From: Owenia fusiformis
Lineage: Eukaryota
Length of the DNA stretch: 64,000 bases
Assembly (NCBI GenBank): GCA_903813345.2
Contig: CAIIXF020000001.1
Span: 16,120,001 to 16,184,000, forward strand
Direction: 5' to 3'
The position numbers and the translations under genes are program-made. The notes below the pieces were generated by a model, which made no database searches, was not told where the DNA came from, and saw only the letters and a program-made list of their open reading frames with translations. Each line of letters opens with the position of its first letter. The first letter of the stretch is position 1. Positions 5,657-36,804 of the stretch are shown piece after piece.

Positions 5657-7436
5657 ATATATCAAATTGGATTATAGAAAGAGGGAGGGGGCATTTTTAT
5701 GATTCATGATACAGCTTCATATTATGTAAGAGTCTTCCAGGTGCTGACAATTAATGCTGTGTAGGGCTGGACCACTAATTCACTATTTTTTTTACTAACC
5801 AAAATATTTTCTAGAAATGCTCCCATAACCCAAGATGAATTGTTTCATGCATAATTTTCATCCATCATTGACACATAATAATAAGTCAGAAAATAATCAT
5901 TCATTGCCATGCATCTGTACATCCCTTCTATTTAATATTGATATTTAAAACTACAATATAAAGTGGGTGAGGGAGGTACACTGCAATTTGTTTTAGTTAG
6001 GCAATATTTGACTTGATTTTTTTTAATATTTTAAAATACTTAAGAGACACCATGGTAAAGCGCTTATTGATGAAGATTTAAATTAATGATCTTGTAGCAG
6101 TACTGAAATGGACACCTTGAATCAACAAAAAACATTTTTAAAATATTACTTTTTATTATTATCACTATCACAATTATATTACTTTAATATCATTCACTTT
6201 CACATACCAGTAAGTTATTGAACATAATTTATTTTAATTTACATTGACATCACATGCCTGGGCACTATAGTATAACCAGACCTCACTATATCGTCTCCTC
6301 ATTCAGAATCTGTGCTTAACTCAAAACTTTTTTCAGATACACCAAGTGTGTTCTGAGCTGACGATATAGCAAGCATTTGTGGATCCATGTTAAGCTTAAC
6401 ATACCACTTGGCTTGCTTATAAATATGGTCTGGTCGATACCCATCATATATACGATACAATTTAATAATTATATGATGTAAAATCAATAGTCTTTCATTA
6501 AGAATCTGTCAATCCCCCCCCCCCCTATTCCCACTGGGATAGAGAGAATGGGTGTGGGGTTGATACAGGGTCTTGATGCAAGCCATTAAAAGGCATTAAG
6601 CCATTACCATGAAAAAATGTCACCACCTTGTAAGTTTTTGCAAATTGTGGTGGTGACATAAAAATCAACACACAGGTACACAGCACATCACAAAATACAA
6701 ACTTTCCTTTAGATTTCTTTCTAAGGACAATATTAAAGTCAGAAGCAACTGATTCATTCTACAGCCATTACTACTACTTAGATGCGACTTAAACTACATA
6801 GTACATACTAGTATACATTTACAAGGATACAAAGCCTGAGAAAAAGAATTAATTTAAGTATTTCGAATTTCCAATTGTACATGACTAGGAATTCTCTGCA
6901 TTATGTAACAAGGCCCTAGATATACAACTGGTATTTGTACAGGACTGACAACATTACTGCATTTCTCATATAAGTATATGTCTTTATAAGTTTAGTACTT
7001 TACAATGTCTTTTGTGACATTAACATTGTTAAGATTACAATATCACAGTTCTGGGTTACTACACTTGCTTAACTGTTAACTTGTGGTGCTGATTTTGGAA
7101 AGTATTTACTTTTCTGCAACAGAAATTCTCACAGTGAGTGCTACTTTGAGTTTTATGAACAAGTCGTTCAACAGTATTTTTTATAGGCCTACCCATGCAT
7201 CAATAAGCCCTGTGAGTCACCTTGCAAGTATATTCAACATAGTGCTATTCTATCTACTAAATAATGGCACAGCCATAATATTGATAAGATTTACCAAAAC
7301 TGAATGATGACAGATATGTATGGACAACATGATTCCACTTCTAATTTGAAGGTTTCAAATTACACAACAAATTCTGGATATATGCTACATTTCTGTCTCC
7401 TGGTGTTTCTCTATATTGTAAATGAGGATAGTCCAG

Positions 7437-10400
7437 CTATGTAAAGTTCTCAGTGATCTGTTTGGGATCCCCATAAACAGCAGCATACATCCCTGGCTGC
7501 AACTTTTCTGCTGTTGATAATACTATGTGGAAATCTCCCTCTTGAGTTAAAGTCATATCTTTCTTAATTTTATTAACATTGCACTTTGTTTTTCCCCTGT
7601 TCCTGAAAGATAACAATATAAAACTTAAATTACAAGTTTATCATGGATAAATGAAACCCATACTACAATAGGACAATTCTTTACAATTAAAAAAATAAGG
7701 TTATCACAAAAATTTCAGTTAGCTAAAAACAAAATTTAAATCAGATGAAATCAATCTAAATCAACTCACGTTAATAATTTGCATATGACAAATGTACAAT
7801 AACTGTGACCATACCCAGTGATGACTTTCTGACCCTTTACAACATTTAAAGTTATAGATACTAACGTGTCTAGTTCTACAAGCTTTATGAGAGAAAGGGC
7901 TCTGCGTTCTAAAGACATGATGAACTGCTCAATATAGGTCTCCCGTATTCCACAGCTTGCCTTCAATTCTGCAAGCTGTAATACAATAAATAAAAAAAAA
8001 ATATACATCCAAGAATAGTGCAAGACACATTAGGCCTTTTCACAGTTTCAGTATACTGTAGATTGGGTTAATTTGGTGCTACTTTATTTGGCAATTTTGC
8101 CATATTGGCGGCTATTTCATTTGGCGAACACTTGGGCTTGGACATTGCTTTGACGGAACAACTTTTATATACACTGAAACAAAACACAAATTGTTACACC
8201 TATTCCTTCAATTCAACTACTATGTCTAGTAGTTTATTAATGACACAACTCCCTGAGCCAATTAAGAAGTGATATGTTCTGATTATTACCCTTATCCTTT
8301 TCAGATTTTGTAAAAACTAAACCATAATTGACTTAAACACACCAAAAGAAATTCCCTGGGTTTCTTTTAAAACTTTGTCAGGATGTAAATTGGCAATTTT
8401 TCAATTTCGCCAAATTCGCCACATTAAAGCGGGCCCCAAATTAACCCAAACTACAGTATGTAAATTCTGTATCTAAAGTCATGACTTGCATTCCAGTTAA
8501 ACAACATCATCAAATTCATTCTTTTAACAAAATAGGGCCATAAAATTCTTCAAAATTCTCCCTTTTCACAAATATACTTTTTCATAAAAAGTTCACATCT
8601 TGTCTGCTATTGCATCACTGCCAATGGTTTGAGAGGTCGTATTTCCTAAAATTGTGTTTTAGCCGAGAAATAATTGATATAAATTGATCATATTTAGCCA
8701 GAATTCAGTTTTCAAATTGTCTTAATGAGTGACCAAGTCAGCTTGACCTTCATGTTTTAGCATACAAGCAATCAATTTCATTCCATATATGGAAAGTGTA
8801 AAAATAGAGCTGTCAATCAAATCTTAGAATGATCAAACATACTAGCTGTTTCAGCTATTTTGTTCAAATGATGGAATATTTCAGTTTTGGAAATATACCA
8901 TTCAAATTGATACTTTAATAAAACATCAGATGTCAATTTTATAGATCAGTGCAATGCCTTGACAAATTATTTGGCAATAGTTTAGAGAAAGTGATAAAAT
9001 TATTCAGATAATGTGAATTTTTCTGCAATTAGTATATATATCATCAATACTTTCAATATTTTATTAGATACCTCAGTTTTTTCAGGAAATTGAAGGGAAC
9101 ATTTTCGCATGATTTAGGGAAAAAGTGTACATTCCATATTTTGCACTCTCTATCAATTGATAACAACACTTTATGTAACTTGTTGTTCCAATTTTGAAAT
9201 AAACCATTCCTCATCATATAATTTTTCTAAAAATGCTAAATGTTTATACTTTCTCAAAGAAAAATTAACTTTTTTTCATTCTTGTGTTCATTCCTCTATG
9301 AATGTGGATAAGCACAATCAATATTTAGGAGATCACCCTTTTTGAACTTGAATTTTCAAAACTTAAATAACTGCACCATATGATAAGGTAAAAGAGATAA
9401 AAAATACCTTTGGTCAAATTCACACATTGCTTCCATTTATGCCAATCATTACACATGTATATCTCTGATTCTGTTTATAATATACTAAAGAATTTTCTGT
9501 TATATGCTTGCTGTGTAATACAAATTGAAGAAATTATATAAAAATGATGAACAAGGCATTAACATGCAAAATGTCACCACCTGCCATTTGTTACAGACAT
9601 CGACTGCCACCTGAACACCAGACACTGACCCCCGAACACAGTCCATTAAAAAGTTGTAGACTATAACACTTGTGGTGGTAACATAAAAAAAATGATGCAA
9701 ATATGGCGATATTATTGGTTACTTACTTCACAGAGAAGTTTTCCAACTAAGGTTTCACCCTCATTATACGGCTTGAATATTTCACTGCAAACATACAGAA
9801 AATTGAAGAAACATGCTATAAAAATTAATTTGTTTTGTGAAGCATGTCATTCATTTGCCTTAGTAAATCACCCAATCAAATATTTCATTCTCATTAAATG
9901 GAAAAATAAATTTATTATTTGATGACTTTATTCCTCATTTTTCGTCAAATGTATTAAAATTTCAAAAACAATTAGGCTAAAAAGAACTTTAAAGAAAACG
10001 AATCCTAGGTGCTTATGTACTTGTAGATAGAGACTAGATGTTCTCACCAGGATTTCTCATATATGGGCAATAATCTTTTCACAATTCTGGTCAAAATAAG
10101 TCAAAATAGGAACAATCATCATTATATACTTCTGTTATTGATGGGGTCCCGCTGAAAATGTAAAAGTAATGGAATTTGACTTTCTCAACCTTTAGCACAT
10201 ACCCCAGGGTCAAAGAATGTATGAGGTGCTTGTCTGAAAAGTGGTCAGTGAATTTTTAATAAACTACTATAGTGGCCCCATTTTTCCATTTTTTGACATA
10301 GAGGCAATAAGTCTGCTTAGAGAATATAAGTATATACTGTACGCCCAGTATTTTTCACGTGCGATTTAGTTTCGCGCTTTTCGCGACTGTATTAAAATCG

Positions 10401-13400
10401 CGAAAATTAATCGTCGCGTATTTCGCCAATTAAAGGCTGAGGTGCATTATGCCGTTGACTAAGATCTAAAAATTTTAAATCTTATCCAAATATGACATTG
10501 GGTAGGTGTAATTACTGTAGATAAGGTAAATTAGTGTACAGAGCTTGAGGATTCAGAGAATAATGGAATTGAAACCTTTGAAATCCGCGAAATTTAATGG
10601 CTGCGAAATTGGTATTTCTCAAAATTCGCGAAATTAAAACTCGCGAATAATACCGGGCGTACAGTACTTCGTTCATTTGGATAACTAGCCAATCTGTTAA
10701 AGTATTATACCTGGTATGAAGTTGTCAATGTCTATAGTCTTATAGATTAATTATTCAAAGATTCAAGAATTTAACTTTCATTTTGACGAATAACATCTAT
10801 GAAACATGACTTAGAATTCACAACATGCTTCAATAAATAACTTAAAAGGGCAGTTGAATCTCAAACTCCTAATTCTTGAAATGTTGGTTTCAGTTTCAAT
10901 TTTAGATTCATAAATATATTACACATTCTTTTGATTTTTGTGTGAGGTTTTTACTAAAGCCATGACCCCCCTCCCCCCACACACACACATTACACAGTTA
11001 ATTTTTACATCTATTAAACTCAATTCATGACATTTTCAAGCTTTATTTAGCTAGCATTAACACTCAAGACAGCTTTGTTTCCTGGCTATGTTCAGTACAA
11101 AAACACTTTCCATTTAAAAACTTCCAGCCAAGTTCGTAATAATTGTGTTGCAGCAAATTACTTCATAAAACAAATCACTCAATAAAACTTATCTACTACA
11201 TCAAACTTGCATGAGAAAACAGTGTCATATATAAATATACAGTTATATCACTAAATGGTGGACATTTAGTCAAGGGACATGATAAAAATGGAGAACAACA
11301 AGTCAACAACTGACAAATTTTGTAACAGTGGTACATAAGGGGATGCATCAGAAGTTCAATGTCTGATAGGAAACTAAATAAATCTAAATAACTCAACTTC
11401 ATTTACTTCAGAGTATAATGGTTTATTTCCGATGTTTATTTGATAAAGCTAGTTGGATGACTGGCAAAACATGGAAAATAATGAATCTACACAGAAATAA
11501 ATAAATCTAGTTTTGAGTTTGACCCCCTCCCTAGATACTAGATACAATGGAAGCTGATCGTAAATTTTTCGCATGTTCTTGTGGACTTGGACATTCGTGG
11601 CCTTTGAAATTTGCTGGATAGCAAACTGAAATAGCTTTGACCCCCCCCCCCTAATTAGATTTATTTGGTTTCCTAGCAGACATTAACTTTTGATGCCTCC
11701 CCTAACCATGTAAAACGAAAGCATGAGCAAGCCAGACATGAGGTCAGGTTGACATCAGGAATGAGGAAACATGTTGAATGTTACTATGGTATCATAAAAT
11801 AAATTTGAGTTATAGTGTTGAAAACTGAGCAACAGGATTCACATCTTTTTTATCACATTTAAAAATGGGCAATGGATGCAGTCAAAAAAGACACAACAGA
11901 CAAAGTACTAGTTTGATCAAAGACTCACTTGATAAAGATGGAGAAGAAAAACTGACCGATTTTGTAACAGAGGTATACAACCATGTTAAACTAAAGCACA
12001 GTCCAGCTGAGCTTGCAAGACATGAACTGGACATCAGGACGCGTATTGTACAACCAATCTGTGATACACTGAGCAGTTCACATCCTGCACTAGCAGTATG
12101 GGATGTACATTTAAATGGAAGTATGTCAAATCAGACAAAGATAGATACACCAAATGAATTGGATTATGTACTTCCAATGGTTCATTCTGATTATATTGAG
12201 TTCTTTAAAAATGAAACATCGGACAAAAAATATAAATGCAAAGTTCATCCCTCACAATGCCCAAAATTATCTCAATATTCAAGATTCATCGACTCCAGTT
12301 GTTTACTTTCAAATCAATTAATTCAGAAGTTTCTGCCACAAGTTGTGAAGGAAAGTCTCAGTCTATTAGACAGGAACTCAGAGAATAGCCTGATTTACAA
12401 GGGTGAGATAAAACTTAAGGGGAACCCCATTGAATCATCCAAGCTGAGCATACATGAAGTAGAGCTAGATACAGAAGTACATGGACCAAGTATCCAACTA
12501 CGTGTTGGAGGATTATTATGTGTTACTGATATTGACTTATGTTTCTGCCTGAAGATGCTTGAGTTACCTCATACAAGTAGAAGATTCTACATAGTGGTGC
12601 CTGATTATAATGGCTGGATAAGGTCATATTATGAAATACCAGATGAAAGAGTTAAACGATTAGATGAGCATCACAGAAAGATAGCTGTGACATTGAAGTA
12701 TATTTTGTCGCAGGTTAAGAAACATAAGTGGAAATCACGATTTCATTCTCATGCTTTGTTTACTCTGGTCCGTAAACATCAGGCTCAATGTGACAGTAGT
12801 GATAGATCACTTGGGAAATGCTACCATGATATAAATCATAGCGTATGTAAGTTGGTGATTAAATCTATGGAGAATAACAAGTACCGGTATGTTGAGCTTG
12901 ATAAGACTTTACATGAAAATATCAAAGACATAGAATGTCCAGAACTTTCTCTCCTCAAACCTGCAAAAAGTATTCCAACTGACCTATTTGTATTTGCAAC
13001 ATACAATCTTACAAAACTAAAAGCATCAAAAATGTGTTCTACTGGCTATAGGTGTACAAATCTGATTGATCTGGTGATTAGGGAGTGTTGGTTAGAACTA
13101 ATGAAACAATGGGCGCTGCAAAAGAATAGCAAGGTCAAATCTAGTGTGAGGAACCTGATCTTGTCAGCAGAGAATGGACAACTATTCAGAGAGTTGATAG
13201 ATCAATATGGTGTGAGTATAGGGGTTTACGAAGGTCTGGAAGTTGATGTACAAAGACTGCTGTCAAGACTGAAGGAGAAGATTAGCTCACAAAGTGAACT
13301 CATAGACATTGAAACATGGTTAAAGAGGGACACTGGGTATATAGAGCCAACAAAAAGTTCTAAAAAGTAACCCAAATATCCCGTTTAAGGATTCCTATTC

Positions 13401-16400
13401 TTACTATTGAAAATGGATTCTAGCAATACTATGATCCCACATGAATCTACTTGTTGAGACTCTATCAACTTGAGTTCTTCTGAGAAAATGAGGATCTCAG
13501 CAAGACTGTTTTGACTTCGGTTTACAATTTTGGGGATACAATGGACTTTAAACCTGCATATTACCATGTATGTTGCATGTATGTCATCATGGGGATAAAT
13601 CCCGGGGGATAGATACAAAGTCCTCATTATCTCAGAACTCAAATTTATTGAGTCTAAACAAGTAGATTCATATGTGAGAGTATTGGTTGTTGTTTGTTGT
13701 TGTTGTTTTTTATTATCATAGTAATTTTTTTTACAAAGATTTTTCAAAAAGTTGCCGAAGCAAACATTATTGGCAACTATACATATAAACACACTACAAT
13801 AAAATTATACAAAAATAGACAGATTTTGACAATACAAAAATGGGCTGCTGGTGGTTGGTTGGTAGTTTGGTTGGAGTAGGTGAAAAGAATAGGTAGCATG
13901 ATCTTATTCAACAAGTTTGATAGATTCATTAATAAAGGTACTTGTAATAGACAAAACTTCTCTATTTGTTTCAATATTTAAAAAGTTAATTCCATACAAA
14001 AGAGTTTCAATTTTATCATCTTGTTTTAAATTGTTAAAGGAGAAATTTATGTCATGCATGGTAAATAATCCATTTAGCCTGTCAAGCATTTGGCGTCTTA
14101 TATCATTGTTGAGGCGACAGTGTAAGAGGAAATGCTTTGTGGTTTGTTTTAAACCACATCTACATACATCAGAATCGATAGTTGTAAAAGAGTGGGCCAT
14201 TTTATGTGCATTTAACAAGAGGCCAACACGTAATTGGTTCAGTTTGATTTCTAAATTACGGGGAAGAGATAAATTTTGTGAATTTGTCTGAATATTTTGA
14301 AAATTTTGGAAGTGCTTTTTGATTTGGCCTTTAAAAGAAGAGATAGTAGGCACCTGCCTGAGCTGTAATGGTAAGGAGTCCCAAATTTTAGAAAAAAGGA
14401 TAGCTCCACTATCCTTGAACCTGGTAGAAATATGTAATGGGATGTGATAGGTTGGCCTATCCCTTAACTCTATTCCTATTGGTACAGGTGTCAAAAGTCT
14501 AAAAAATCTCTGATATATGAAGGGCACATATTATGTTTTACCTTGAACATTAACACACCTATGTGTGATAATCGTCTGGCTTCTAAAGTTGGCCAGTTTA
14601 GAATTTTCAAAAGTTTGTCGCCATTTGATCCATGCAGAGCTCCAGATACTAAGATTGCAGCTCTATAGTGCAAGGTATCTAGCAATTTTAAGGTTGTTTT
14701 GTTACTGCCGTGGTATAAAATGGTAGAATCCATTTTCTATAGTCAGAATAGGAATTCTTAAACAGGACACTAAAGGCCTTTTGAAAATTTTGGTTAGCTC
14801 TATTAAATAGGAGGTAGATTAACCGAACAGAAATAACAGAATTTTTGATTCCACAAAGTTGGTCAATTTTCATTTTGACTGAAAAAATGTATTACTTCCA
14901 ATTTTGCTATGTGCATCTTTCAATGTTTTGATGTTCGTATTCTGCAGTTAGATTTTAATTTTATCAATTTGTCGCGTCGAGGTGTAATAAGACATTTAAA
15001 AACAAAGCTTAGCCATTCAAAAGTATTTAGCAGTGCTGTAATAATTAACTAATCCTGACTTTACCATGTTAAATACTGTACCATTTTAAAGTATGGATGT
15101 AACCTGATATTTTAAGGGGAGTTGCTAGCAAGTTTCGAATCCTGCCTAGCTGCAGGTTTGGACCTGAACCAATAATTTCACTTATTGGAATAACAAAACA
15201 AAACTAAAATAACTAGAAAACAACAACTCCACGAAGTAGCTCATCCCACCGAACAAAACATGATAAATGGCTGCCATTATGATAAATAGAGGCCATGTTG
15301 AAAATTTATCTGTATGCATCAGCTCATAAAATTTGAACCAAATCCATCCACTATTATTTGGGTTATCAAACATTTTGAAGCTAAGAGCAGAACTCCTTTG
15401 CCTCTAGGCATCAGCATATAGAATCTGAACCAAATCCCTCAACTAGTATTTGAGTTATCAAAGATTACATACTGTTACAAAGAATGATGGCCATTTTGAA
15501 ATTCAAGTGCCATCTTGAAAAGTCATTCTCGACCAGAACTCCTGGGTCCCTTAGGTATCAGCATAACAAATTTGAAACAAATCTGTCCACTGCTATTTGT
15601 ACAAAAATGGCCACCATTTTGAATAGCTGCCATCTTATTAATCTCTTCTTCAGCAAAGCTCTTTTGTCCCTAGGCATTAGCATATGAGCCAGGCCACAGG
15701 AAAAGGGGTCTTATCACAGATTTTTTCAATATTCTGATTTTTTGTTTACCTTAGAAAGCACAAAAAGACCTTTCAAATGAGCCATGGCTTCTTGTCTCAA
15801 CAATTTTTCCTTGCATATATAGACCAAAAAGTCGGATTTGAATTTAGCACATTTTCCTCTAAATCGTGGGCACATTTTTGCCTCTATAGCACAATTCCAA
15901 TTTTTGTGATAAGACCAGTTTTCCTATGGCCAGGCTCATATATTGAAATTCAAACCAAATCCTTCGACTTGTATTTGAGGTATTATCAAAGATTACATTT
16001 TTTTACAAATGGTGGCCATTTTGAATTGAGTGGCCATACTGAAAATTCCTTCTCAAGCAGAGGTCCTACACCCATAAGGCATAAGCCTATAAAATTTGAA
16101 TCAAATCTATCCCCCAGTATTTGAGGTATCACCTGGACACACAAGCAGACAGACGGACGAACCAAGATTTGGTGTTTAAAGGATTAATTATTCAAAACTG
16201 CTATTCACACAAACAAATGTCAAAAAAATCAGAAGATATTACAGACATTTAAGTACATTTATACAGATTCATTATTCCATAGACTAGACAAAAGAAATGT
16301 AAAAAATATTTTGTCAAGCCACCCCTCTGTCAGAAAATTAGGAAAGATGGCGCCACTATAATACCGAACTAAAAATTCACTGACCACTTTTCACACAAGC

Positions 16401-19400
16401 ATCTCATCTCATTCTTAGACCCTGGGGCATGTGCTAAAGGTTGAGATTTAGTCAAATTTTCAATGGGACCCCATCAGCAACAGGAGTGATGGTTTTTCGA
16501 ATTTTCAATATTAGGTGAAACACCCACTTGCGTCAATGCAGGAAATGTTCAGAATACTGTATTTTATAATCAATATAACATGATACAGACCTCGTTGGAT
16601 AGACCTTATCCTCTCTATGCTCAGCCCAAAGACAAGTCAAATCTTGCTTCATCATTTCATAACGTCGCACACTGTGGATGTGACAGGGCTGTGTCACATG
16701 AATTTCTTTGGTTGACATGTCAATCAAAGCTGATGGGAATTTACTGCATAACACATCAATAGAGGGGATATTGGTTGTGTCATTATCATCCTGAAATGGC
16801 ATAACTTGATGGTTGTCATTTTATTTCAGTGATCTCCCCTCCCAGGGTTTTTGTAAAACAGAGATTAAACAATGCAAGTGAAGACTCTTGCAAATACAAT
16901 TGTAAAGAATTTTAGGACTCAGAAATTCTGACAAAGCTAGTAATAGATTCAAGAAATTGTTTCAGCACAATAGCCAATCACTGAGAAAAGTATAGTTGAA
17001 GTAACCAAGATGAAAACCTACCTTGATAATGGCCTGTATGCTAAGGTCCGAATGGTAAGGGAATCTAGGGTTGTCTGATGTGGCAAGTCTTGAGCAATGA
17101 CGTTCCGTAGCACCAAGGAAAAGAGCCAGAGTTCTAACTAGCTGAAATGTTGATCATACAATAAACATCAATACTTTCAACTAAACGTACATTATGGCGC
17201 TGATGTTATATTACAAACTGACTTATGTTAATCATAATGCAGTTAATAACATTTTTGATGTAGGTCTGTGGAATACTGAAAAAGTACGAAATGACATTTG
17301 AGCCCAAAGGTAAATACATGTTTAATGTACCCTGTCCCTGTAAAGGAGATTGATGATGTGAAGCAGGATAAGCAAAGTAAAAAAACAGTTAACGTATGTA
17401 CTTGGGACATGACAGATCCAGCCACAGAACTGTATTATGTTGTCAGCCTGGATACCATTATTGTCATGTCCCATCAAAGTACAAATTATGTGTTTGATAC
17501 TGATAGAAATATCTAACCACAACCTTGTTTTATGGCAATGCACATTCGGGGGAATCCCCTATTCAGTTCAATTAACATATTGTATAAAATGAAAATATTG
17601 GGGATTGAAAGCCAAAAAATAATTGGCCGTTTTTCAGATATGTTATTTTTGTCTGTTATGCATGACCCAATACACAGTTTATAAGTAATTTAGTATGTAC
17701 ACTGTATTATACGATATGTTAATAAGTAAGTATTTACAAAATGGTGTTTCTGCACTAGGATGAGTGAACTTTGGGACACATTTATAAATTCCTTACTGTG
17801 TTTAACTGGCTCTTTATTTTGCCGACTACTATACTGTGACCACATGTTACTAGATGAGCTGCAATGGCTTTACGCAGGAAGGCATTCTCAATGGGATGGT
17901 CTGAGCGGAGCAGGGTGGTAGAGATCTAGAGAGGGAACAACAATATATGGCATGTTAGGATCAAGTCATCATGCAGCAAGTTACATGTATACAAGATGTC
18001 ATACAATGCAAAGCTTATATTCCAGAAAGAACTTGGGGATAAGATCCAGACTGTGTTCCAATTAAAGCAAATATAACTGAACATTGTTTATTGCAAAACT
18101 TATTTGAACGGAAGCAATCAATAATAAACATTTTCTTATTGCATGCAGATGTGAACAATTTTCAATTTTTCAATTGCTATTTCCTCCTGAGATTTAATTT
18201 GCCAATCTCAATATATCATTTTATTTTTCAAGTAAACAATTATCTCGAAACTCAAAATTTAATAATGTGTTAAAGCCTGGTAGGAAAGTCAATGCAAAAT
18301 CATGGTGGGTGTTGAAAAGGGTGGTCCAAATTAGACAACTTTGAAGTTCAATTACCTTCACCAGAATTTGGGATGGTATTGACCTAAAAACATTCCCTGT
18401 GTAATATTTCAACTCAACTCCATTTGGAAATTTACCCGCCTACTGAACCCCTTACACTACTTACATTTATTGTTGATGGCAGAGCTAGCATACTGAGTGA
18501 TCTTAGCATTTGTATAAAGCTTTGGATGTTCTTTGGCATTGAAAACTCTCCTATAGCACCATTACCAGGGTCCTAGAATAGAAGATGATATAGTACAGTC
18601 CATGTATTGGATAGGGCCTCCTAAGCTTTTGAGGGAAATGTTTTGATGAAGTTTACAAATATGATTGAGCAAATGAGCACAGTAAGATTCAAACAGAATT
18701 ATTGTCTGATCTGCCCCATATTACCTTTGAAAACAGAAAGTTGGAGCAGGGAAAATTGATCTGTTGGTCCTTTTCTGTAAAAAATGTTTTCTTAACTTCC
18801 TATAGTAAAACTATGACAAAAATGAATATGCAAAATATATAAATATTGCAAAGTTCACTTCTAAATAAATGATACATAATGGATAAAATATATGTTTTTT
18901 AACAAATTATCATTTACAATTACAAGTATTTTCCTTTTCTATGCCAATCTAGTTGTTTGCTGTTCAGGGCATTAAATAATTTAAAACTTTTGAGAACTTG
19001 AAAACTTACTATAGATTGTAGAACTTTCAGCCTACTAATCAGCCTTTTCATCCAAATTACACAGAGGTCATGCCATTTAAGATAGGTTTCTAAATGTTCT
19101 AGAGGCACCACTAATGATAGTGAATGCACACACTTTCCTACAGTTGACTTAGCACCAAATATAAATGATGTCACTGATATTGACTTTTCTTGAATAACAT
19201 AGAATTTATCATCAATTGTTCGATCGCTAAGATCTCTGGTGATTTCTCCACTAAGCGTATGATTTGCCACAAAGCGCAGGGTCTTTAACTGAGCAGGGGT
19301 GGCTTCTTGATTGTATGTGTTACTCCAGAGATGTATAATCCTCGGCCCCATTATGTTATCCCAATGCGAAAGAATAATGGCACTGATGATACAGTTATCT

Positions 19401-19519
19401 GATAAACCATTTGGGTCTTTGAGACTGGAGCAACCAAAGCTACTACTAGGGCTAAGCAGATCAAAGAAAACTTCCTCCTTTACACCACCAGGTCCAGGAT
19501 CATTATATGGATTGTCCAT
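7437..19519 (-). CDS. C9orf72: C9orf72 orthologue (DENN-like). Exons 19519-19010, 18572-18465, 17925-17797, 17141-17022, 16790-16591, 9784-9727, 7975-7866, 7602-7437; ~466 aa
   Basis: Phase-consistent GT-AG exons encode SHWDNIMGPRIIHLW, FVANHTLSGEI, KAIAAHLVTCGHSIVVG, LVRTLALFL, ERRALSLIKLVE and EGDFHIVLSTAEKLQPG, collinear with human C9orf72 motifs (WDNILGPR, FLANHTLNGEI, AEKIKPG). Confidence 0.95.
8054..8458. mobile_element. TA-flanked MITE with TACTGTA termini
   Basis: tactgtagattgggttaatttgg ... ccaaattaacccaaactacagta inverted ends. Confidence 0.7.
10335..10666. mobile_element. TA-flanked MITE with TACTGTA termini and internal cgcgaa repeats
   Basis: tactgtacgcccagtatt ... aataccgggcgtacagta inverted ends. 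Confidence 0.75.
10886..10901 (-). promoter_or_regulatory. ISRE-like (IRF-binding) element ~1 kb upstream of the cGLR start codon
   Basis: ggtttcagtttcaatt reads AATTGAAACTGAAACC on the minus strand, matching GAAANNGAAA. Further AANNGAAA half-sites at ~11623 and ~11712. Confidence 0.35.
11865..13370 (+). CDS. Single-exon cGAS-like receptor (Mab-21 domain nucleotidyltransferase, cGLR), 501 aa, predicted N-myristoylated
   Basis: Long uninterrupted ORF. NTase signature LNGSMSNQTKIDTPNELDYVL (GS..K...P.E.D), third carboxylate in TDIDLCF, WIRSY and TLKYIL segments typical of cGAS/Mab-21 proteins; N-terminus MGNGCS. Confidence 0.88.
   Translation: MGNGCSQKRHNRQSTSLIKDSLDKDGEEKLTDFVTEVYNHVKLKHSPAELARHELDIRTRIVQPICDTLSSSHPALAVWDVHLNGSMSNQTKIDTPNELDYVLPMVHSDYIEFFKNETSDKKYKCKVHPSQCPKLSQYSRFIDSSCLLSNQLIQKFLPQVVKESLSLLDRNSENSLIYKGEIKLKGNPIESSKLSIHEVELDTEVHGPSIQLRVGGLLCVTDIDLCFCLKMLELPHTSRRFYIVVPDYNGWIRSYYEIPDERVKRLDEHHRKIAVTLKYILSQVKKHKWKSRFHSHALFTLVRKHQAQCDSSDRSLGKCYHDINHSVCKLVIKSMENNKYRYVELDKTLHENIKDIECPELSLLKPAKSIPTDLFVFATYNLTKLKASKMCSTGYRCTNLIDLVIRECWLELMKQWALQKNSKVKSSVRNLILSAENGQLFRELIDQYGVSIGVYEGLEVDVQRLLSRLKEKISSQSELIDIETWLKRDTGYIEPTKSSKK
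13683..14760 (-). mobile_element. 5'-truncated, frameshifted LINE (CR1/L2/Jockey-group-like) 3' end
   Basis: Overlapping ORF pieces (LNWPTLEARR, WDSLPLQLRQVPTISSFK, LRVGLLLNAH, CRCGLKQTTKHFLLHC) typical of a non-LTR ORF2 C-terminus; A/(CAA)n tail at ~13683-13712. Confidence 0.8.
15682..15941. mobile_element. MITE with ~40-bp TIRs (atatgagccaggccacaggaaaa)
   Basis: Inverted ends atatgagccaggccacaggaaaaggggtcttatcaca / tgtgataagaccagttttcctatggccaggctcatat. Confidence 0.7.
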
Positions 19520-19549
19520 TGTCACGTTTTAGAGGTCAACTCTCTGGAC

Positions 19550-19810
19550 CTATTGTAAAATCACTCGAATCTCTTTATGGATTTGTATGGTATAAACAAA
19601 GTAGTTTGCGAGAGCAATGTTTGTAAACATAAAAGTATAGACCAGAAGCACGTTCAAACTGAAGAGGTCTATTTCATCAGTGCTGGTCTGAGCCAAGAAG
19701 AAAAGGAAGACTATGAACATCATAACGATACATGATAGGAAGCTATAGTTTGCAAACAGCAGGACGAGTCTATCTTGGTTCAACACCTGAGATGTCCAAT
19801 CAGCCCTCAT
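19550..19810 (-). CDS. Possible 86-aa two-TM upstream ORF ending 30 nt before the C9orf72 ATG
   Basis: ATG-initiated ORF with two hydrophobic stretches. A candidate acceptor at ~20015 would put it in the same exon as the C9orf72 start; an alternative acceptor coinciding with its stop would make it intronic. Confidence 0.3.
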   Translation of the reverse strand: MRADWTSQVLNQDRLVLLFANYSFLSCIVMMFIVFLFFLAQTSTDEIDLFSLNVLLVYTFMFTNIALANYFVYTIQIHKEIRVILQ

Positions 19811-22068
19811 TTAAAAGGTGTTTGGTGGGGTACGTGTATACCCCTTAGTTATGTTAAAAATCATAGAATGCAATCTATGGAAATAACTGCTAATGATATG
19901 AAATTTCAATATCCATATAAGAGTCGTCCCAAAGGCTACATGAGTTTAGTATCAATCTCACACTGGCCTCCTTTTATATTAATCGGTTAAATGCTTTTGT
20001 GTAAGCTTCTCCACCTGCAAGCAAAACATGCAGATATGATCATATACATAATTGTCAATATGTATAGTCCATTTCAATATTGGGTTGTTTGTGTATCAAT
20101 AAAACCTTGAGAAATTAGCAATCAAAAGACCATCGTATGGCGTATATAGTATCATAGGGAAAATGCATTAATATTTCAAAGACAAAACATTTGTATATTT
20201 CAGTTTTATGTGCAATAAACCCATGACCTCTTGTAATTTAGGAAGTTTCAGCCATGTTTATTTTTCTTAAATGAAATACATAAGAATTACAGAATTACAT
20301 GTCAGAAAAGAATACAAGAGGCTATCCATTTTATTCGCCATCTGCAAGCAATTCAACATTAACAAAAATTTTGCATATTGTCTTCTTTTTTCTACTTCTT
20401 CATCTTTGATTACAGTAGTCTGACCTTTTGAGGATATTTCGTACTTTGTATGTTTACGTAAAGTATAATTGTCGTGTGATGATGCATAAAATCTTTACAA
20501 TCGTTTTTAAATCATCATTATTTTGTACAAAAACATCAAACTCTCTGCCTTATTAAAAATTTCAAAATTACTTAAGATGTCATTATTTAAGCGGGGGTAA
20601 ATTTTTGCACTTTTTATAAATTCGTTAATTTTGCGTGTTTATATTTTTGCGCTGATTCCACTTCTGTATAAACAAAATAAATAAACTTAAGAAAAGTTGC
20701 CATATATTTGCAAAGCATCTTGGGAGTTTTCTGTGCACTGAACGAAAATGCAGTTAACGAATCTGATATCTGAATCTGGGACTGACAAGATGCTTGGCAG
20801 TCAATCAAATAAGCATGTTGATTACACATACATTTTGAGCACTGTATTGCACTGATTGCAGGGTTAGTTCTAAGACTGATGTTAATTTTGAACTTTTACA
20901 TGTGAGTTCAGTGCGCATGTGTGAAGTGAAATTAAGATGTTTGAGATCGTGTTTCACTATAAATAACAACTTTGTGTGCATTACTATCTTATGATTATGA
21001 CTCGTGAAGCTATACTTATATGCACGCACCTACAAACTATGATGCAACATATGGATATGAGGGGTAAGTGCCACGGACTTATAGAAAATCAACAAAATCA
21101 TAATTTTTTCGTAATTTTTACAAATTTTTTTTCCAAGACAACTATCCTTAGTCTATATCCAATATAGACTGAATTTCCTGAGAATTCAGTCTATTGATCA
21201 TTATGTCCCTCCTGTGGGAAAAAACAGGAAATTTCCTGCACACAATTATTAATTTAAGGAATCTTCACTTCCAAAAAATAAGCATATTAACAATTCAATT
21301 AAGTAGTAAAGTACAATTAAATGCTATAAAAAGTAACACAGCATATTGTCAAATGGAAATAAACCTAGGGGAAGTAACAAATATGCAAATTAATTTACTC
21401 CATCGCCCATTTTGAATGGCACTTCCTATGTCAACAAATAATTTTCAATCGCAAATTTTAACATAAGTGGGCTATAGTCTGAATATTTTCATTCCAAATT
21501 TCAAAAAAATATCAGACTGGAGGATATAATCTACAACTATCCTACAGCTAATAATTTGCAGGTCCTTTTTCACGGATGGAGGGCATCCTGCAAATAAAGC
21601 AAAAATATACAAACTGCGAAATTAAAGACGTCTACAGTATGGTACTGTTAGTCTTTTGATTGCTTTTTTTGAGGTTTTATTGATGCACAGCCCAAGTGAA
21701 ATGGACAATAAGTCCATGGGCTTAAATCGTAAGATCATTTTCATTTTTGAAGTAAGCAAAAGTTCTGATTAGTATTCGACCACATGTAAAACCTGTAGGC
21801 TACCGCCATGGTGTAAAGAGTCTTGATAAAAATGTTCAAATGTACACTTTGTGGGCGATAATAGAGTGTGGTCTACATGAAAATAATTCTGACAATTTTA
21901 TTTCTAATTTTCTGACCTAAATAGCAATACTTTCACCTTTTTGCTAGTATGTATCAGCTTTTGTATTTTCTTGGTGATAAAAACATTGTCATAATTCTAA
22001 TTTTACACGGATTATAGACAAAAGGGTAGTAAAACTGAGTACATAACATTTTGCATTTTTTCACTTAC

Positions 22069-31200: not shown

Positions 31201-34200
31201 CAAATCTTTTGGACTGTTATGAACTATGAGTAAACTATGTTATAAACTATGAGTACTGGGTTTTATGAGAAATAATAGCCGAGGACCTTGGCCTGAGGCC
31301 ATTAGTTTTTCATAGACCGAGTACGAATGGTCTATGTAACTTAAACCCAAAACTGACTCTTGTGGAAGGTAAATGGCCCATGCTCAAATTCTAGGAAAAT
31401 TTTATTTCATATGTGTTGACTAAGAGGTAAGTGTGTTGAGTGAGTGAGTGTATTAGTTCAGCTTTGGTGCACTGGATGTGACAATCAATGATGTCCTTTG
31501 AGCCACACTGGTTTTGGATTGCTAGCTAAGTGTCAATTATTTAAAAACAATAGAAAAGGAATGTACTCTTCTTTGTTACGGCTGCATATTAAAATAAATT
31601 ACAGTTCATTCAATTGTGCAGCTTCCTAAGTGGGGTTTAAAGTCAGTTGAAGTGTCAGAAAATAACAATTTTTTGCTTCCCCGGGAGCCAATCCTCCTTG
31701 GTAAAACATGAAATTTTGAAAAAGCCAACAACCAGAACGGCAGCATGATTATGTTTTATTCTAGAGGAAGCATGGCAGGAGGATGGGCTCCAGAAAACGA
31801 CGACAAAGGCCAATGGATACAAGCAGCACTGGGTGAAATTATGTTTGTGACAGGGGTGGTCACTCAAGGAGAAGAAAAAGTCGACCACTGGGTTATATCG
31901 TACAAGTTTCTTTATGGTAAAACGGTAGAGACTTTGGAGGAGTATCGGAAGGTAAAATATTGAAATTCTTTTTACTATTCACGTTTATAAGTTAGTATTC
32001 CTTGCTGTCTTTGGTCTTTGTACCTTCACGAATACAGTGAACTAAATTGGAAAAAATGAAATCTGTGATCATTTATAAAAAGCAATTATTTATAATAACA
32101 AAATTTTTGTTTTTTAGATTCTACAAGGGAATAATGACCGAAATACACATGTTACTAACATGATAGATCCACATGTGCTGGCCAGATTTGTTCGCATTAA
32201 TCCTCAAACGTGGTACAAACGTATAGCCATGAGGTTCGATGTTATTGGATGCCCTAAAACAGGTAACAAACGTGAAAGTAATAAAGGATCAGTCATATTC
32301 GGTAGGTCATTTGGCAGCAAATGATATAAAAACGATTAGTATTTATATTTTAATAGCGGTGCAAATGTGTCGCCAAAATCACTTCATTGTGAACATTTTC
32401 AGAATTGGTAGATAATCTCAAAGGTAGCATTTTATGCAGTTTAGTCATACTAAAAGACTCAGGTACCACATCAACCGCTTTCTTCAAGAGATCCAGACTG
32501 TGATTGCAACAATGCCTTACTGACTAAATGCCAATCAAATGTGGCATTTACATTTTTACCATATTATTCTAGTCGCCCAGTGCCCAATGTTACCAGACCC
32601 TCCTATTGGGCACACAAGGATATCTCAGCTGGATGGATTGTACAATGGGGCAATAGTACAAAATGAATGCCTACCAGGGAACCATTACTACTCGGGGGAT
32701 TTTGTGAAAAAATGTATTGCATACAATTCCTCTGACGCTGGTGAATGGGTTGGTGATGACCTTATATGTCGAGGTAATAATAATAAGTGTGACCCGTCCT
32801 TATATGTGTGACCCGTCCTTATCCCTAATAATAGCCTGTGGAAATAAACGATAGAGATACCATTCAATATATGCTTTACATAATAGCATGATCTTATGTC
32901 TTGTATATCTTTTCTGAGGTCAATTACATCACTGCTCCCGAGTGTGGAAAGTTTCCATCGCTTAAATTCAAATATGCTCTGAATTTAGATTGATGTTTGA
33001 TTCATAGCTTTGTTAGAAAAATCCATTCTAATACGCATTACATCTTTATGTTATGCGACAATTGTGAGAGCTTTATTAATCAAACGGACGGACGAACGGC
33101 TATGTACTATATCCCATCTTTTAACCATAATTTCCTAACATACTTATAATGTTCATCCTTAGGCTGTTGTGATTTTGAGAAGACTCCCGATACAACCCTT
33201 GTATACAATTTCAACACACTGTCACTAGGCCCTGTTGATATCCTACAAGGTATTGTTAGAATTATTCTAATTATAAATATTTAACTTTTCTTAACTATGG
33301 CCAGTCAATTATGAAGACCAAGTATGAATGTTTTTTGGATTGTATTTGTTATATTGTTTGAATTAATGATGCATATTATATTAATTATCTATTTGTATTT
33401 ATGTGAAATAGCTCTTTAACAAATAAATTTTGCTTGTGTTTTTCTTTTGTAGGGAATGCAACTATTCAACGACAGGGGAGATATGTTGGACTCAATACAA
33501 TGCCAAGTGGTGTTCTCAATATACAAGATCAAATACTTTCCGGTCAACTCGAGCTCACATTCTGCATAGAAACTTGGATAGATATCATATCAAATACAAC
33601 AAATACAACACAACAAAATGAAACAGACAAACATGTTATCATTGAGGTATCAAATACCTTTGGATTGACGATCACCAATAACTCAAATGAGAATATCAAG
33701 TTTATTGCATTCTTCAATCTAAAGAATGAAACAGTTTATCAATCGATAACATTAGATATGGAATTCTTGAAGGACTCAAACTTACTCCAAATAGTCATGA
33801 CAAAAGTCAAAGATGTGGTTGTATATTTTGTAAATGGAGTTCAAGTTTTCAGCAGTGTAACTGAAGAGGAAATATTTGCTTCAATGAATGAAACCACTCG
33901 GGAATTTGTTGTGTCAGTTACTGGTGACGTAACCCTGTATTCAATCCGCCTGCAAGACACAAGCTGCTTTGACACGGTGACATATAAAAATGGTAGTGAA
34001 CATGATACATTTAACTTTGTGGTTGAATTTCATGATGAAGCCTTTGTGCAAGGAAGTGCTTTGAAGATCTGATAACTTCATTGTATTCATTACATTGTTG
34101 AAGTAATGCACAGCTAAATTTGTGCTTCAAATGATAAATATGAATTTTCACCTTCAAAGTGTTCAGCGTGTGCTATAAAATTATTGTAAAACGTTATGCA

Positions 34201-36804
34201 GTTTTTGACACCCTGTGGATCTAGTTCTATTGTGTTCAATTACACAGTTTTCATGTTCTACAGTTATTATTCAGTCTACATCAAAATTAATCGTAATATT
34301 TTCAGTTCAACGACAAAGGCGAACTGGCTGCGAAAATGGAGACAATAGCATCAAGTTATCATGTGCAAGAGGTGACGTGCTAGTAGTGCACACTGTAGAA
34401 GTAGGCCAGAGCAACAGCAGCAATGGTATCAACCGCATGTGTGAATTCCTATACGACCCCTCGTGCGCTATCCAGCTAGTGAAAACCCAAAATTTAATCA
34501 AGGAAATGTGTGATGAACATAATGAGTGTATGATAGCGTATCATGATTACACGGAACTCAGACCGGATACTTGTGACATGAGTCACAGTGTAACAGCAGT
34601 GGTCACATACCAGTGCATAAGTGAGTATCATCAGTATCAGTAATAGAGAAAGAGATTTAATAAAAGAAGAAAATAGATTAGGATGTGTGGTGTACATTTT
34701 TGAAGCGTTGCTTATTAATTGCCATATGGCAATCAAATTTTATTTTAAATTCACAGTTGTTCGAACAAAGGTTCTTCCAAAAACATTTTTTGGAATCAAA
34801 AAACCGTACTAGCACATTTTAGTAACATTGGGCGAGGCTACAATTTAAGCCAAATGGTTTATAGTGGCTTTCAACCAGTTGAACTAATATAATGTTCTCT
34901 TAGTTTTCAAACAATTTCGCGAATTTATAGTAATAAGCTGTTACGATCATTCACATCTTGCGTTTCTAGGAAAGATAAATGCAAACTCTCGGAATTTATC
35001 ATCAACAATGAACTCATCATCGGAAGTGATGGATTTGTTTCCATATGAAACTTGTGTCTCAACCATGGAGGTGATAGAATTTGACATGGGAGCCTATTCT
35101 CAAATTGATGAACTAATACTTTACTTTAGTAAGTATGGTTAGAGATAAGGGTCTTGTCACTTGACACACCTCATATGTCTGTCTTTTTGCCTGTCAATTC
35201 AGCTTTCTCCGCCAAGAGTTCAATAGTACAAGTACTGGCAATGTGTCACTACCTCATTCACAGTGTCATTGCCGTACCAAATCATACTTAAATCTAAAAC
35301 AACTTTAGCATCCTCCGAGCGCAAGGCTGCTTCTTTCCTTTACGGATTCTGGCTTAGGCTTAGGCTTAGGCGGATGCACCTTAAATGTTTATCTGTATCT
35401 ATTTTAATTCAAAACCTACTAATTACTAAAACCATAAAATTAAGTATTCATCAGGAAATTGTTCAGTAGCTAGTTTATGAACTAGAATGGTTTTAAACTA
35501 AATATGAAAAAACAACATTGATCTATGAAAATCTGAGAATGGATTTACGACTCTAGTTTGGTGTGGCACTCTGTATAGCTCTTTGATACTGAGACATTTT
35601 AGAAGTATCATAAAAAATCATAATGAAGTAGACATTATACCAATACCTTATTTCAGATGTTTCATCTACTATAGCAACTAACAAGGCTAAATTGGTAAAC
35701 ATAAAGGTCTCTACTAATGATACGGAGGCTGAAACCAAGACCTGCAGTACAAACGCAACTGTGACACATTCTATGCCTGTTCTCTATGACTGTGGAGATT
35801 CAGTGTTTGGGAATTTGGTGGCTTTAGAAATAGAGGGTAGATTTCCAGGTTGGATGATTTGCAATGTGGAGATATATTCAAAAGAAGGTAACGAAAAGCA
35901 TTTCGAAAAACATTCAATAGTATTTATTACCATGGTCATGATACCCCAATTAATAAATACATTCTGTATGTAGAACCAGTACAAAATATAACAGTACACA
36001 TTTGGATCACTTTTGGATCATTCCATCATGAACAGCTTAATATATCTTGAAATATATTTTGGTTCGATGCTCATTTTAATTGTAGTGGCATTTCAAACTA
36101 TTTCACCCGTCATTGAAATTGATGATACTACCACCACAACTGGTGAAACTACCAAACCAACTGATGAAACTACCACAACTACTGATGAACCTGCCGAAGC
36201 CACTGAAACTGCACCAGCTGCTACTGAAACTGCCGCTAACACTATTGAAACTGCGGCAGCAACAACTGACTCTGCACAAGAAACGAGTGAAACTGCCCTG
36301 ATAACTACTGAATCTGTCCCAAGATCGACTGAAATTGCCCCAGGAACTACTGAAACTACTAAAACTGCACCAGAAACTACTGAATCTGCCTTAAGAACAA
36401 ATGAAACAACCCTTATAATTTCTGGAACAATTCCAGCGACTACATATGGAATCATCCCGACAACTACTGAAACCAGTCCAACAAGTACAGAAACTGATAC
36501 ACCCAGTACTGGTTTCACCAAAACAACAAAAACAACACCTTTGGAGATTTTTCTTAAAGTAGAAGAGGATGAAAATGCTAATGAATATGTGGCTGCTAAG
36601 AGAATTGAGCTTGAACCAACTGAAGCAAAATATGCTGCTGCAGTGGGAATTCCTGTATGTGTCCCACCCATCATTTTCATATCGACCCTTATTCTCCTAG
36701 ACCTCCCTAAACTTGTACAGGATCTCAGGCAGGCGTACAACTATGTTGTATATGGCACAAAGGTGAAACCAAAGGTTGGCCAGAAGTCTCCTATATTAAA
36801 CTGA
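25211..36804 (+). CDS. Mosaic multi-lectin type I membrane protein, ~1330 aa if the frameshift is corrected. Order: signal peptide, unknown beta domain, WSC-like, F-type-lectin-like, F5/8C discoidin, Sushi, LamG-like, SUEL lectin, second F-type-like domain, Thr-rich stalk, TM. Exons 25211-25295, 25912-26180, 28338-28557, 28934-29233, 29662-29865, 30182-30367, 30854-30993, 31765-31951, 32118-32262, 32573-32773, 33163-33249, 33453-33992, 34306-34620, 34970-35128, 35657-35887, 36086-36804
   Basis: Canonical splice sites with matching phases except exon 7 (1 nt off). Motifs: MEKRSQILIFLLVIWAAII, YTHKGC..KCYLKA..IFGL, NAAIGKQVYQSS..LALCYVEVY, GGWAP..QWIQ..VTGVVTQG..GNNDRN..ARFVRINPQTW..IAMRFDVIGC, QCPMLPDP..ECLPG..W.GDDLIC, GCE..LSC..MCDEHNEC..VTYQC. 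Confidence 0.82.

Follow-up and report, generated by a model that had tools for sequence, protein, structure and literature searches.

What kind of gene lies inside the longest intron of C9orf72 in the annelid Owenia fusiformis, and does its position there matter? The open reading frame (ORF) in question occupies positions 11865-13370 of a 64,000-nucleotide stretch of the Owenia genome (assembly GCA_903813345.2, contig CAIIXF020000001.1, positions 16,120,001 to 16,184,000 of the forward strand), which we refer to as the window. The original prediction took it to be an intronless cGAS-like receptor (cGLR) gene, running antisense to its host and perhaps of retroposed or otherwise mobile origin, and suggested that an activator of STING signalling nested in a dampener of the same pathway could couple the two. 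At a probability of about 0.72, we favor the reading that the ORF is a genuine, intact Owenia fusiformis gene for a divergent cGLR, with a single coding exon, and that its nesting is most likely functionally neutral.

The frame itself is not a product of chance. In the standard code it begins with ATG and comprises 501 codons and a stop codon in one coding exon, as had been predicted. The open span from stop to stop is 11829..13370, and in length the ORF ranks second in the window, behind the 1243-aa ORF2 of a long interspersed nuclear element (LINE) at 53179-56910. The window is AT-rich (GC content 0.31-0.41) and its stop-codon frequency is 0.061, at which 513 open codons would occur at a given position with a chance of about 8e-15; the 501-codon frame therefore cannot be open by chance. 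The start codon at 11865 is supported by the gap-free alignment of the product with a paralogue, P0007, from Met1 through the motif KLKH at residue 45, and the single coding exon is co-linear with the paralogues from the start codon on. The composition of the ORF (GC 0.370; GC at third codon positions, GC3, 0.329) matches that of exon 1 of C9orf72 (0.392 and 0.335).

11865..13370, + strand: single-exon coding sequence of the cGLR-like protein, a predicted divergent Mab-21-fold nucleotidyltransferase (NTase), from the ORF, family profile, AlphaFold2 model, Foldseek, VIA-align and sense RNA reads

Read depth and sequence variation in a second data set, run X1, give insight into the integrity of the gene. 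We judged X1 to be DNA-like, as its contigs continue unspliced over exon-intron borders and contain none of the C9orf72 junctions. Depth over the ORF in this run (16-31) is like that over the C9orf72 exons (12-29), which indicates that the ORF is single-copy. X1 differs from the assembly by 13 substitutions within the ORF and by no insertions or deletions. All 44 high-scoring segment pairs from a tblastn search of the window with the family fall within 11800-13400, and no second family copy was found in the window. The last 30 nt of the ORF and the following 55 nt (13341-13425) recur in inverted orientation at 14721-14803, with 78% identity over 85 nt; beyond this inverted copy there is no further similarity to the ORF, and a repeat may extend into the 3' end of the gene.

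Assignment of the product to the Mab-21 superfamily depends on a family profile or a structure model, Pfam alone being insufficient. The family alignment, A1, has 43 rows, of which thirteen match the Mab-21 family PF03281 at E ≤ 0.01 (best 1.7e-6) and thirty escape it. When the A1 profile was searched against the PDB, 41 chains matched at E ≤ 1, all of them cGAS, cGLR or Mab-21-domain entries or one of two entries named 'uncharacterized protein' (4jlx and 4kb6); in our structure comparison 4kb6 bears the title porcine cGAS. The top match, the cGAS chain 7lz3_A (E 4.3e-14), aligns in one stretch from positions 43-343 of the profile to positions 11-318 of the chain. An AlphaFold2 model built on A1 is confident throughout, with a mean predicted local distance difference test score (pLDDT) of 87.5 and a predicted template modelling score (pTM) of 0.88. 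Foldseek placed cGAS first among PDB entries for this model (E 2.2e-10; target-normalised TM score 0.64-0.68), followed by 7lt2, the double-stranded RNA (dsRNA)-sensing cGLR of Tribolium castaneum (E 1.1e-9), and by MAB21L1 (5eom; E 2.2e-9). VIA-align superposed residues 28..403 of the model on residues 145..507 of mouse cGAS, with Z 22.1 and a root-mean-square deviation of 3.1 Å over 307 residues, and gave Z 20.8 for the oyster receptor Cv-cGLR1. In the ESM Atlas, where the exact sequence of the ORF product is present, Mab-21 clusters account for 28 of the 30 feature matches. The only Pfam match of the single sequence, DUF7841, was below threshold (E 0.11) and was rejected as a domain of the protein.

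11946..13073, + strand: cGAS/Mab-21-like catalytic domain (residues 28-403), a predicted NTase core with a C-terminal helical lobe, delimited by VIA-align
13074..13367, + strand: predicted C-terminal helical extension (residues 404-501) without recognisable fold, outside the cGAS alignments

Modelled alone (residues 395-501), the C-terminal extension reaches a pLDDT of 73, a Foldseek search of the PDB with it gave no matches at E ≤ 0.001 (best 1.8), and only the closest paralogues align over it. The fold of the remainder indicates that the ORF product is a cGAS/Mab-21-fold nucleotidyltransferase, and we propose that the gene is a new, divergent member of the cGLR class.

The signature of GS, E-L-D and D-I-D on which the original prediction was based is indeed present and aligns with cGAS, although Pfam is unable to read it.

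12117..12164, + strand: predicted activation-loop residues G85-S86 and catalytic E98-x-D100, aligned with GS and EFD of cGAS
12528..12536, + strand: D222-I-D224, in which D224 is the predicted third catalytic acidic residue, aligned with the 'VD' strand of cGAS

These elements are widely shared within the family. Among the 37 rows extending over the N-terminal motifs, 36 combine GS, [DE]x[DE] and a third acidic residue; the position of D224, within the family signature HGPxxxLRVGGxLCxTDIDLCFC, is nearly invariant and acidic in all 37 of the covering members. The family is old or fast-evolving, the median terminal branch of its tree being 0.76 changes per column. Conservation of the catalytic set across branches of this length argues for selection on catalysis and so for a working active site in the ORF product, where GS, E-x-D and D are complete. 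The signature block, written more fully as HGPxVxLRVGGPLCxTDIDLCFC in A1, also surrounds the third catalytic aspartate with two or three conserved cysteines, and the C-terminal lobe has a conserved HQxxC...GxC pair, which may be a metal or disulphide site. The claim of a cGLR-type enzyme is thus upheld for the fold and the active site and was not borne out by the PF03281 search that had been proposed for it.

We compared the protein with the definition of cGLRs given by Li et al. (2023; PMC9980059). The looser motif described there, G[S/G] with [E/D]h[E/D] and a third [E/D], is found in the ORF product, and it was this form, rather than the strict one, that the paper used in its final selection. 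Homology extends across both lobes, as seen in the alignment of the profile to the cGAS chain, and the AlphaFold2 model provides the structural homology, with the scores given above. Annelids have no occurrence in the main text of this catalogue (PMC9980059). A literature search for 'cGAS-like receptor' with annelid found nothing, and among the papers listed for Owenia with cGAS none was on the topic by title.

Consideration of the known members of the superfamily shows where the Owenia protein is typical and where it departs. Vertebrate cGAS (mouse 8g10 and 4k96; human 6edc) superposes over the whole catalytic domain (Z about 22, about 3.1 Å, about 305 residues) and shares the GS loop, the ExD, the third aspartate and the bilobed arrangement of NTase core and helical lobe, while sequence identity is 14-18%. 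Relative to cGAS, the ORF product has about 30 extra residues between ExD and D and a C-terminal extension of about 100 residues. The Cys-rich stretch that precedes the KYLLEQL helix of cGAS, which we take to be the Zn thumb, has no counterpart in the family profile, and the protein starts with MG where cGAS carries a long basic N-terminal tail. The protein also resembles invertebrate receptors: in addition to Cv-cGLR1 of Crassostrea virginica (8gjw) and the Tribolium cGLR, both found by structure, the family profile matches 8gjy ('cGAS-like receptor 1'; E 9.9e-12) and 7lt2 (E 6e-9). The family resembles a lineage-specific expansion such as those of bivalve and cnidarian cGLRs (PMC9980059). 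It differs from known cGLRs in that its named members are from Owenia fusiformis only, in the 30 of 43 members that escape Pfam Mab-21, and in a catalytic spacing beyond X50-90.

The same fold is found in MAB21L1, MiD49, MiD51 and TMEM102 (from 5eom and the Atlas structure rows), and the protein might alternatively be a non-enzymatic or non-canonical Mab-21 protein, in which the fold serves as scaffold or adaptor, as in MAB21L1, MiD49/51 or crustacean Mab21, and produces no nucleotide signal. The failure of Pfam Mab-21 to detect the ORF, the departure of its catalytic spacing and of the residue before GS from the published cGLR motif, and its structural neighbors, which include MAB21L1 and clusters of MiD49/51, ITPRIPL2 and TMEM102, would all fit such a role, and in shrimp, Mab21 proteins are reported to work in ways that fall outside canonical sensing (PMC12928593). 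In contrast, all five catalytic positions are kept in all but one of the 37 relatives despite their long end branches, and the profile recovers cGAS and cGLR chains, with none of MAB21L1, MiD49, MiD51 or TMEM102 among its 41 matches. We consider a non-enzymatic role unlikely on this balance.

A word-index protein search with the ORF product returned five homologues, all Owenia fusiformis entries named 'unnamed protein product' and at best 41% identical, whereas an exhaustive phmmer search found 41 at E ≤ 0.001, led by P0006, a 209-aa fragment of 66% identity, and then P0007 (40%). The contig with the C9orf72 locus is 62.2 Mb long, whereas the contigs that carry the seven other named Owenia paralogues measure 31.9, 34.9, 35.8, 37.5 and 40.8 Mb. 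In a tree of 42 rows, from which P0044 (C9orf72), P0035, P0040 and P0012 were left out, the ORF is sister to P0006 with support of 100 and forms a five-row clade with P0006, P0001, P0007 and P0002 with support of 99; the rows labelled Owenia require no fewer than three separate positions in it. The ORF belongs to a paralogue family of Owenia that is dispersed and fast-evolving.

To assess transcription we used three stranded RNA runs of one study (X12-X14), sampled at 6-12% and mapped with a 95% likeness threshold. Their strandedness is apparent from C9orf72, which is encoded on the minus strand and yields reads with the first mate on the + strand almost exclusively. The depth of first-mate-on-+ reads across the ORF (bins 11774-13075) is 0 in all three runs, and that of ORF-sense reads, with the first mate on the minus strand, is 0-2.8, rising to 1.3-3.6 in the bin 13076-13509. 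With exon 1 of C9orf72 at a depth of 28-32, the ORF is at about 2-5% of its host. As the nearest paralogue has 66% protein identity, cross-mapping is not an issue at this threshold. Transcription of the ORF is thus weak and basal and confined to its own strand; the expression that was looked for on the sense strand is there, at a small fraction of the level of the host gene. A candidate polyadenylation signal, AATAAA, is present at 13798, downstream of the stop codon.

Several observations weigh against the gene being an intact, working cGLR. The single ORF sequence has no match to PF03281 at E ≤ 1, and phmmer with it against the PDB gave chance-level matches only (a sulfotransferase, E 0.074). 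It fails the strict motif h[QT]GS-X8-20-[DE]h[DE]h-X50-90-h[DE]h (PMC9980059). The spacing of 11 residues from GS to ExD fits this motif; the misfits are N84 before GS, where Q or T is required, and the 121 residues from Y101 to I223 in place of 50-90, the extra length being some 30 residues inserted immediately ahead of the HGPS strand, opposite gaps in cGAS. Expression is very low, each run yielding between a few and about 17 reads at the sampling used, and the 3'-most bin of the ORF (13076-13509) overlaps a repeat. The 13 polymorphisms in X1 comprise 5 synonymous and 8 non-synonymous changes, at 311 and 1192 sites respectively, and the resulting ratio of non-synonymous to synonymous polymorphism per site (pN/pS) of about 0.42 is not significantly below 1 in this underpowered comparison (binomial P = 0.11). 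Finally, the Owenia protein set that was searched among deposited sequences has no 100% match to the ORF protein, which is apparently the product of an unannotated gene.

The host gene was identified from both protein and RNA evidence. Minus-strand frames at 18923-19528, 16965-17153 and 16536-16820 match PF15019 (C9orf72-like) at profile positions 2-87, 158-194 and 201-230. An Owenia fusiformis 'unnamed protein product' of 466 aa, P0044, carries PF15019 and is 100% identical to the first C9orf72 exon, and tblastn with it resolved eight minus-strand exons from 19519 down to 7440. All seven splice junctions were seen in the stranded RNA runs.

~19519-19010, 18571-18465, 17925-17797, 17141-17022 and 16790-16591 (each ±1), - strand: C9orf72 coding exons 1-5, from P0044 tblastn, PF15019 and RNA junctions
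~9784-9727, 7975-7866 and 7601-7440 (each ±1), - strand: C9orf72 coding exons 6-8, from P0044 tblastn and the RNA junctions 7975->9727 and 7601->7865
9785..16590, - strand: C9orf72 intron 5, the repeat-filled host intron of 6806 nt, from spliced reads in all three RNA runs

The junction 9784->16591 spans 6806 nt and has CT..AC on the + strand, equivalent to GT..AG on the minus strand; the first-mate-on-+ reads that cover it number 16 in X12, 12 in X13 and 2 in X14, and X13 has a further 2 with the first mate on minus. These spliced reads define intron 5 as 9785-16590, and the ORF lies wholly within it on the opposite strand. The antisense position that had been predicted is correct, as are all of its coordinates. 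Intron 5 is the longest of the gene, the other six measuring 231-1752 nt, and holds inverted and direct repeats, among them several inverted pairs; X1 depth reaches the thousands, indicative of high copy number, at 10472-10905, 11340-11773, 13076-13509 and 15246-16113. One inverted pair, 10173-10304 and 16322-16458 (84% over 137 nt, and probably extending out to about 10141 and about 16474), flanks 6.3 kb of the 6.8-kb intron, with the ORF included. Its ends are ragged and no target-site duplication was seen at them; the pair may represent one dispersed repeat present twice, or what is left of a large element.

Such surroundings raise the possibility that the ORF is a retrocopy or the cargo of a transposon, a young and possibly decaying copy rather than a maintained gene. 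The single coding exon would be expected of a retrocopy, and the ORF stands amid high-copy repeats, between the arms of the 137-nt inverted pair and beside an ORF fragment (13904-14736, minus strand) that resembles a LINE tail by eye; its low transcription, its pN/pS and its lack of annotation are also compatible with decay. The features of a processed retrocopy, a poly(A) tract and target-site duplications, are nevertheless missing: there is no run of seven or more A within the 730 nt after the stop codon (13371-14100), and direct repeats shared by the flanks (11300-11864 and 13371-14000) are 10-11 nt long, a chance size. Nor did Pfam find a transposase, a reverse transcriptase or any other family above threshold in ten other ORFs of intron 5. 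The ORF is single-copy by depth, has the codon GC of its host and is intact in X1, and with a nearest relative at 66% identity the copy is not young, yet it is fully open. We therefore think it quite improbable that the ORF is a decaying mobile copy, and a retroposed or mobile origin, which the original prediction suggested, lacks the support of a poly(A) tract or target-site duplications.

As to the fragments beside the ORF, 13907-14530 and 14494-14736 (both minus strand), BLASTP against the LINE ORF2 of the window gave nothing significant; the best similarity was a CxxC..H..C patch at E 0.2, and the LINE-tail label is our reading only. The LINE frame itself (53179-56910, + strand) appears by eye to be a complete ORF2 of a non-LTR (long terminal repeat) retrotransposon, with endonuclease, reverse transcriptase and a C-terminal CxxC...H...C knuckle.

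We next consider whether the cGLR gene is coupled to its host. In mammals C9orf72 promotes the lysosomal degradation of STING (reviewed in PMC9930166), in agreement with the premise of the original prediction. Coupling could take two forms: induction of the cGLR could interfere head-on with transcription of C9orf72 and so lower the STING dampener, and/or paired sense and antisense RNA could supply dsRNA to the sensor. The antisense geometry is real, and in Drosophila nested genes are reported to interfere with each other's transcription (PMC5174743). However, the ORF and fully spliced C9orf72 are expressed side by side, and at the sampled depth none of the three runs has C9orf72 pre-mRNA reads across the ORF (bins 11774-13075), so that there is little antisense partner RNA at steady state. 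The position is not a family trait, as the seven other named Owenia paralogues lie on contigs that differ in length from the C9orf72 contig. No expression divergence was found for mammalian nested pairs (PMC8467205), none of the papers listed in a literature search for Owenia with STING was on the topic by title, and the association between the two genes was picked post hoc. Coupling in either form is very unlikely.

The nesting is probably coincidental. With a scattered family, one copy in a long intron needs no special explanation, and we propose that a member of the dispersed family would have ended up in antisense orientation in the longest intron of C9orf72, which is rich in repeats. Nested genes typically originate as short young duplicates inserted in long introns (PMC5174743) and make up about 10% of Drosophila genes (PMC3814207). 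The Owenia pair is like other metazoan intronic antisense genes in being a short gene in a long intron of an unrelated host (PMC5174743, PMC3814207, PMC8467205), and differs only in the identity of its partners. By analogy with known cGLRs, the protein would be held inactive until a ligand, nucleic acid or other, binds, possibly at a membrane, and would then make a cyclic di- or oligonucleotide for a STING-type receptor.

A membrane location is suggested by the N-terminus of the protein.

11865..11882, + strand: MGNGCS, a candidate motif for N-myristoylation (Gly2, Ser6) and palmitoylation (Cys5), read from sequence

The N-myristoylation consensus has Gly2 and a small residue at position 6, preferably Ser or Thr, with the lipid attached by N-myristoyltransferase (NMT); Cys5 of the ORF product could presumably add palmitate. 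An MGxxxS start is also present in P0007 (MGQAIS) and P0034 (MGAFAS), and in the partial model P0001 as M-GAGSS at the aligned internal methionine, while an MG start occurs in 4 of the 31 Met-started family proteins. The product is possibly N-myristoylated, and the motif, if real, would be a trait of the subclade of the ORF and of scattered other members. Among the papers listed in our literature search on cGLRs and myristoylation the one relevant paper concerns OAS2, in which an N-terminal Gly2 with a Ser further in is described and myristoylation gives the Golgi or membrane targeting that its antiviral activity requires (PMC13372824). OAS2 and OAS1 p46 are lipid-anchored RNA sensors of the NTase fold. 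The Owenia protein, with its own Gly2 and Ser, may work like the myristoylated OAS2, but OAS proteins belong to another part of the NTase superfamily, and any lipid attachment in the Owenia protein is predicted from its motif only. The most elaborate scheme would combine these elements: a myristoylated and palmitoylated cGLR of an uncatalogued annelid clade, wired by its position, whose induced antisense transcription through intron 5 would lower C9orf72 in a feed-forward cGLR-STING amplifier, possibly with dsRNA as an added self-ligand. We regard this scheme as the least probable of all those considered.

A number of other features were noted in the window. C9orf72 has two acceptors 3 nt apart (NAGNAG-type; 7972 and 7975, both joined to 9727), which would add or remove one codon; reads for 7975 and 7972 number 38 and 10 in X12, 29 and 10 in X13 (with 2 further first-mate-on-minus reads for 7975) and 15 and 16 in X14. 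The 3' untranslated region of the gene extends below 7440, with an RNA depth of about 22 in 7000-7433. Within intron 6, RNA reads on the C9orf72 strand reach a depth of about 470-610 over some 50 nt (9550-9599), which are also very deeply covered in X1. These reads run in their thousands into unrelated flanks, A/T-rich before and (ACACCAA)n-like after, which indicates a widely transcribed repeat piece and not a local RNA gene; Rfam at its gathering threshold and ARAGORN each gave no matches in 7000-20000. In the same intron 8076-8735 carries antisense RNA on the + strand. Each of the three RNA runs covers this segment to a depth of about 22-25, reads begin at 8324 and 8092, and there is a small joint 8223->8292; given its high copy number in X1, the segment is probably a transcribed repeat. 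At 33407-36804 (+ strand) there are several open frames of 144-270 aa, of which the part at 35992-36804 has a low-complexity stretch rich in Thr, Glu, Ala and Pro followed by a hydrophobic segment. This suggests that the frames are exons of a mucin-like membrane protein.

Taken together, these data indicate that a cGLR in C9orf72 is a curiosity and, on present evidence, an ordinary nested gene. The significance of the locus lies in the gene itself: apparently unannotated, it would, together with its paralogues, bring an entire divergent clade into the cGLR repertoire of an annelid. The MGxxxS start in its closest relatives suggests a lipid-anchored cGLR, in parallel with the myristoylated OAS2. 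Furthermore, since both Pfam Mab-21 and the published motif spacing miss this protein, counts of cGLRs in spiralians may be underestimates.

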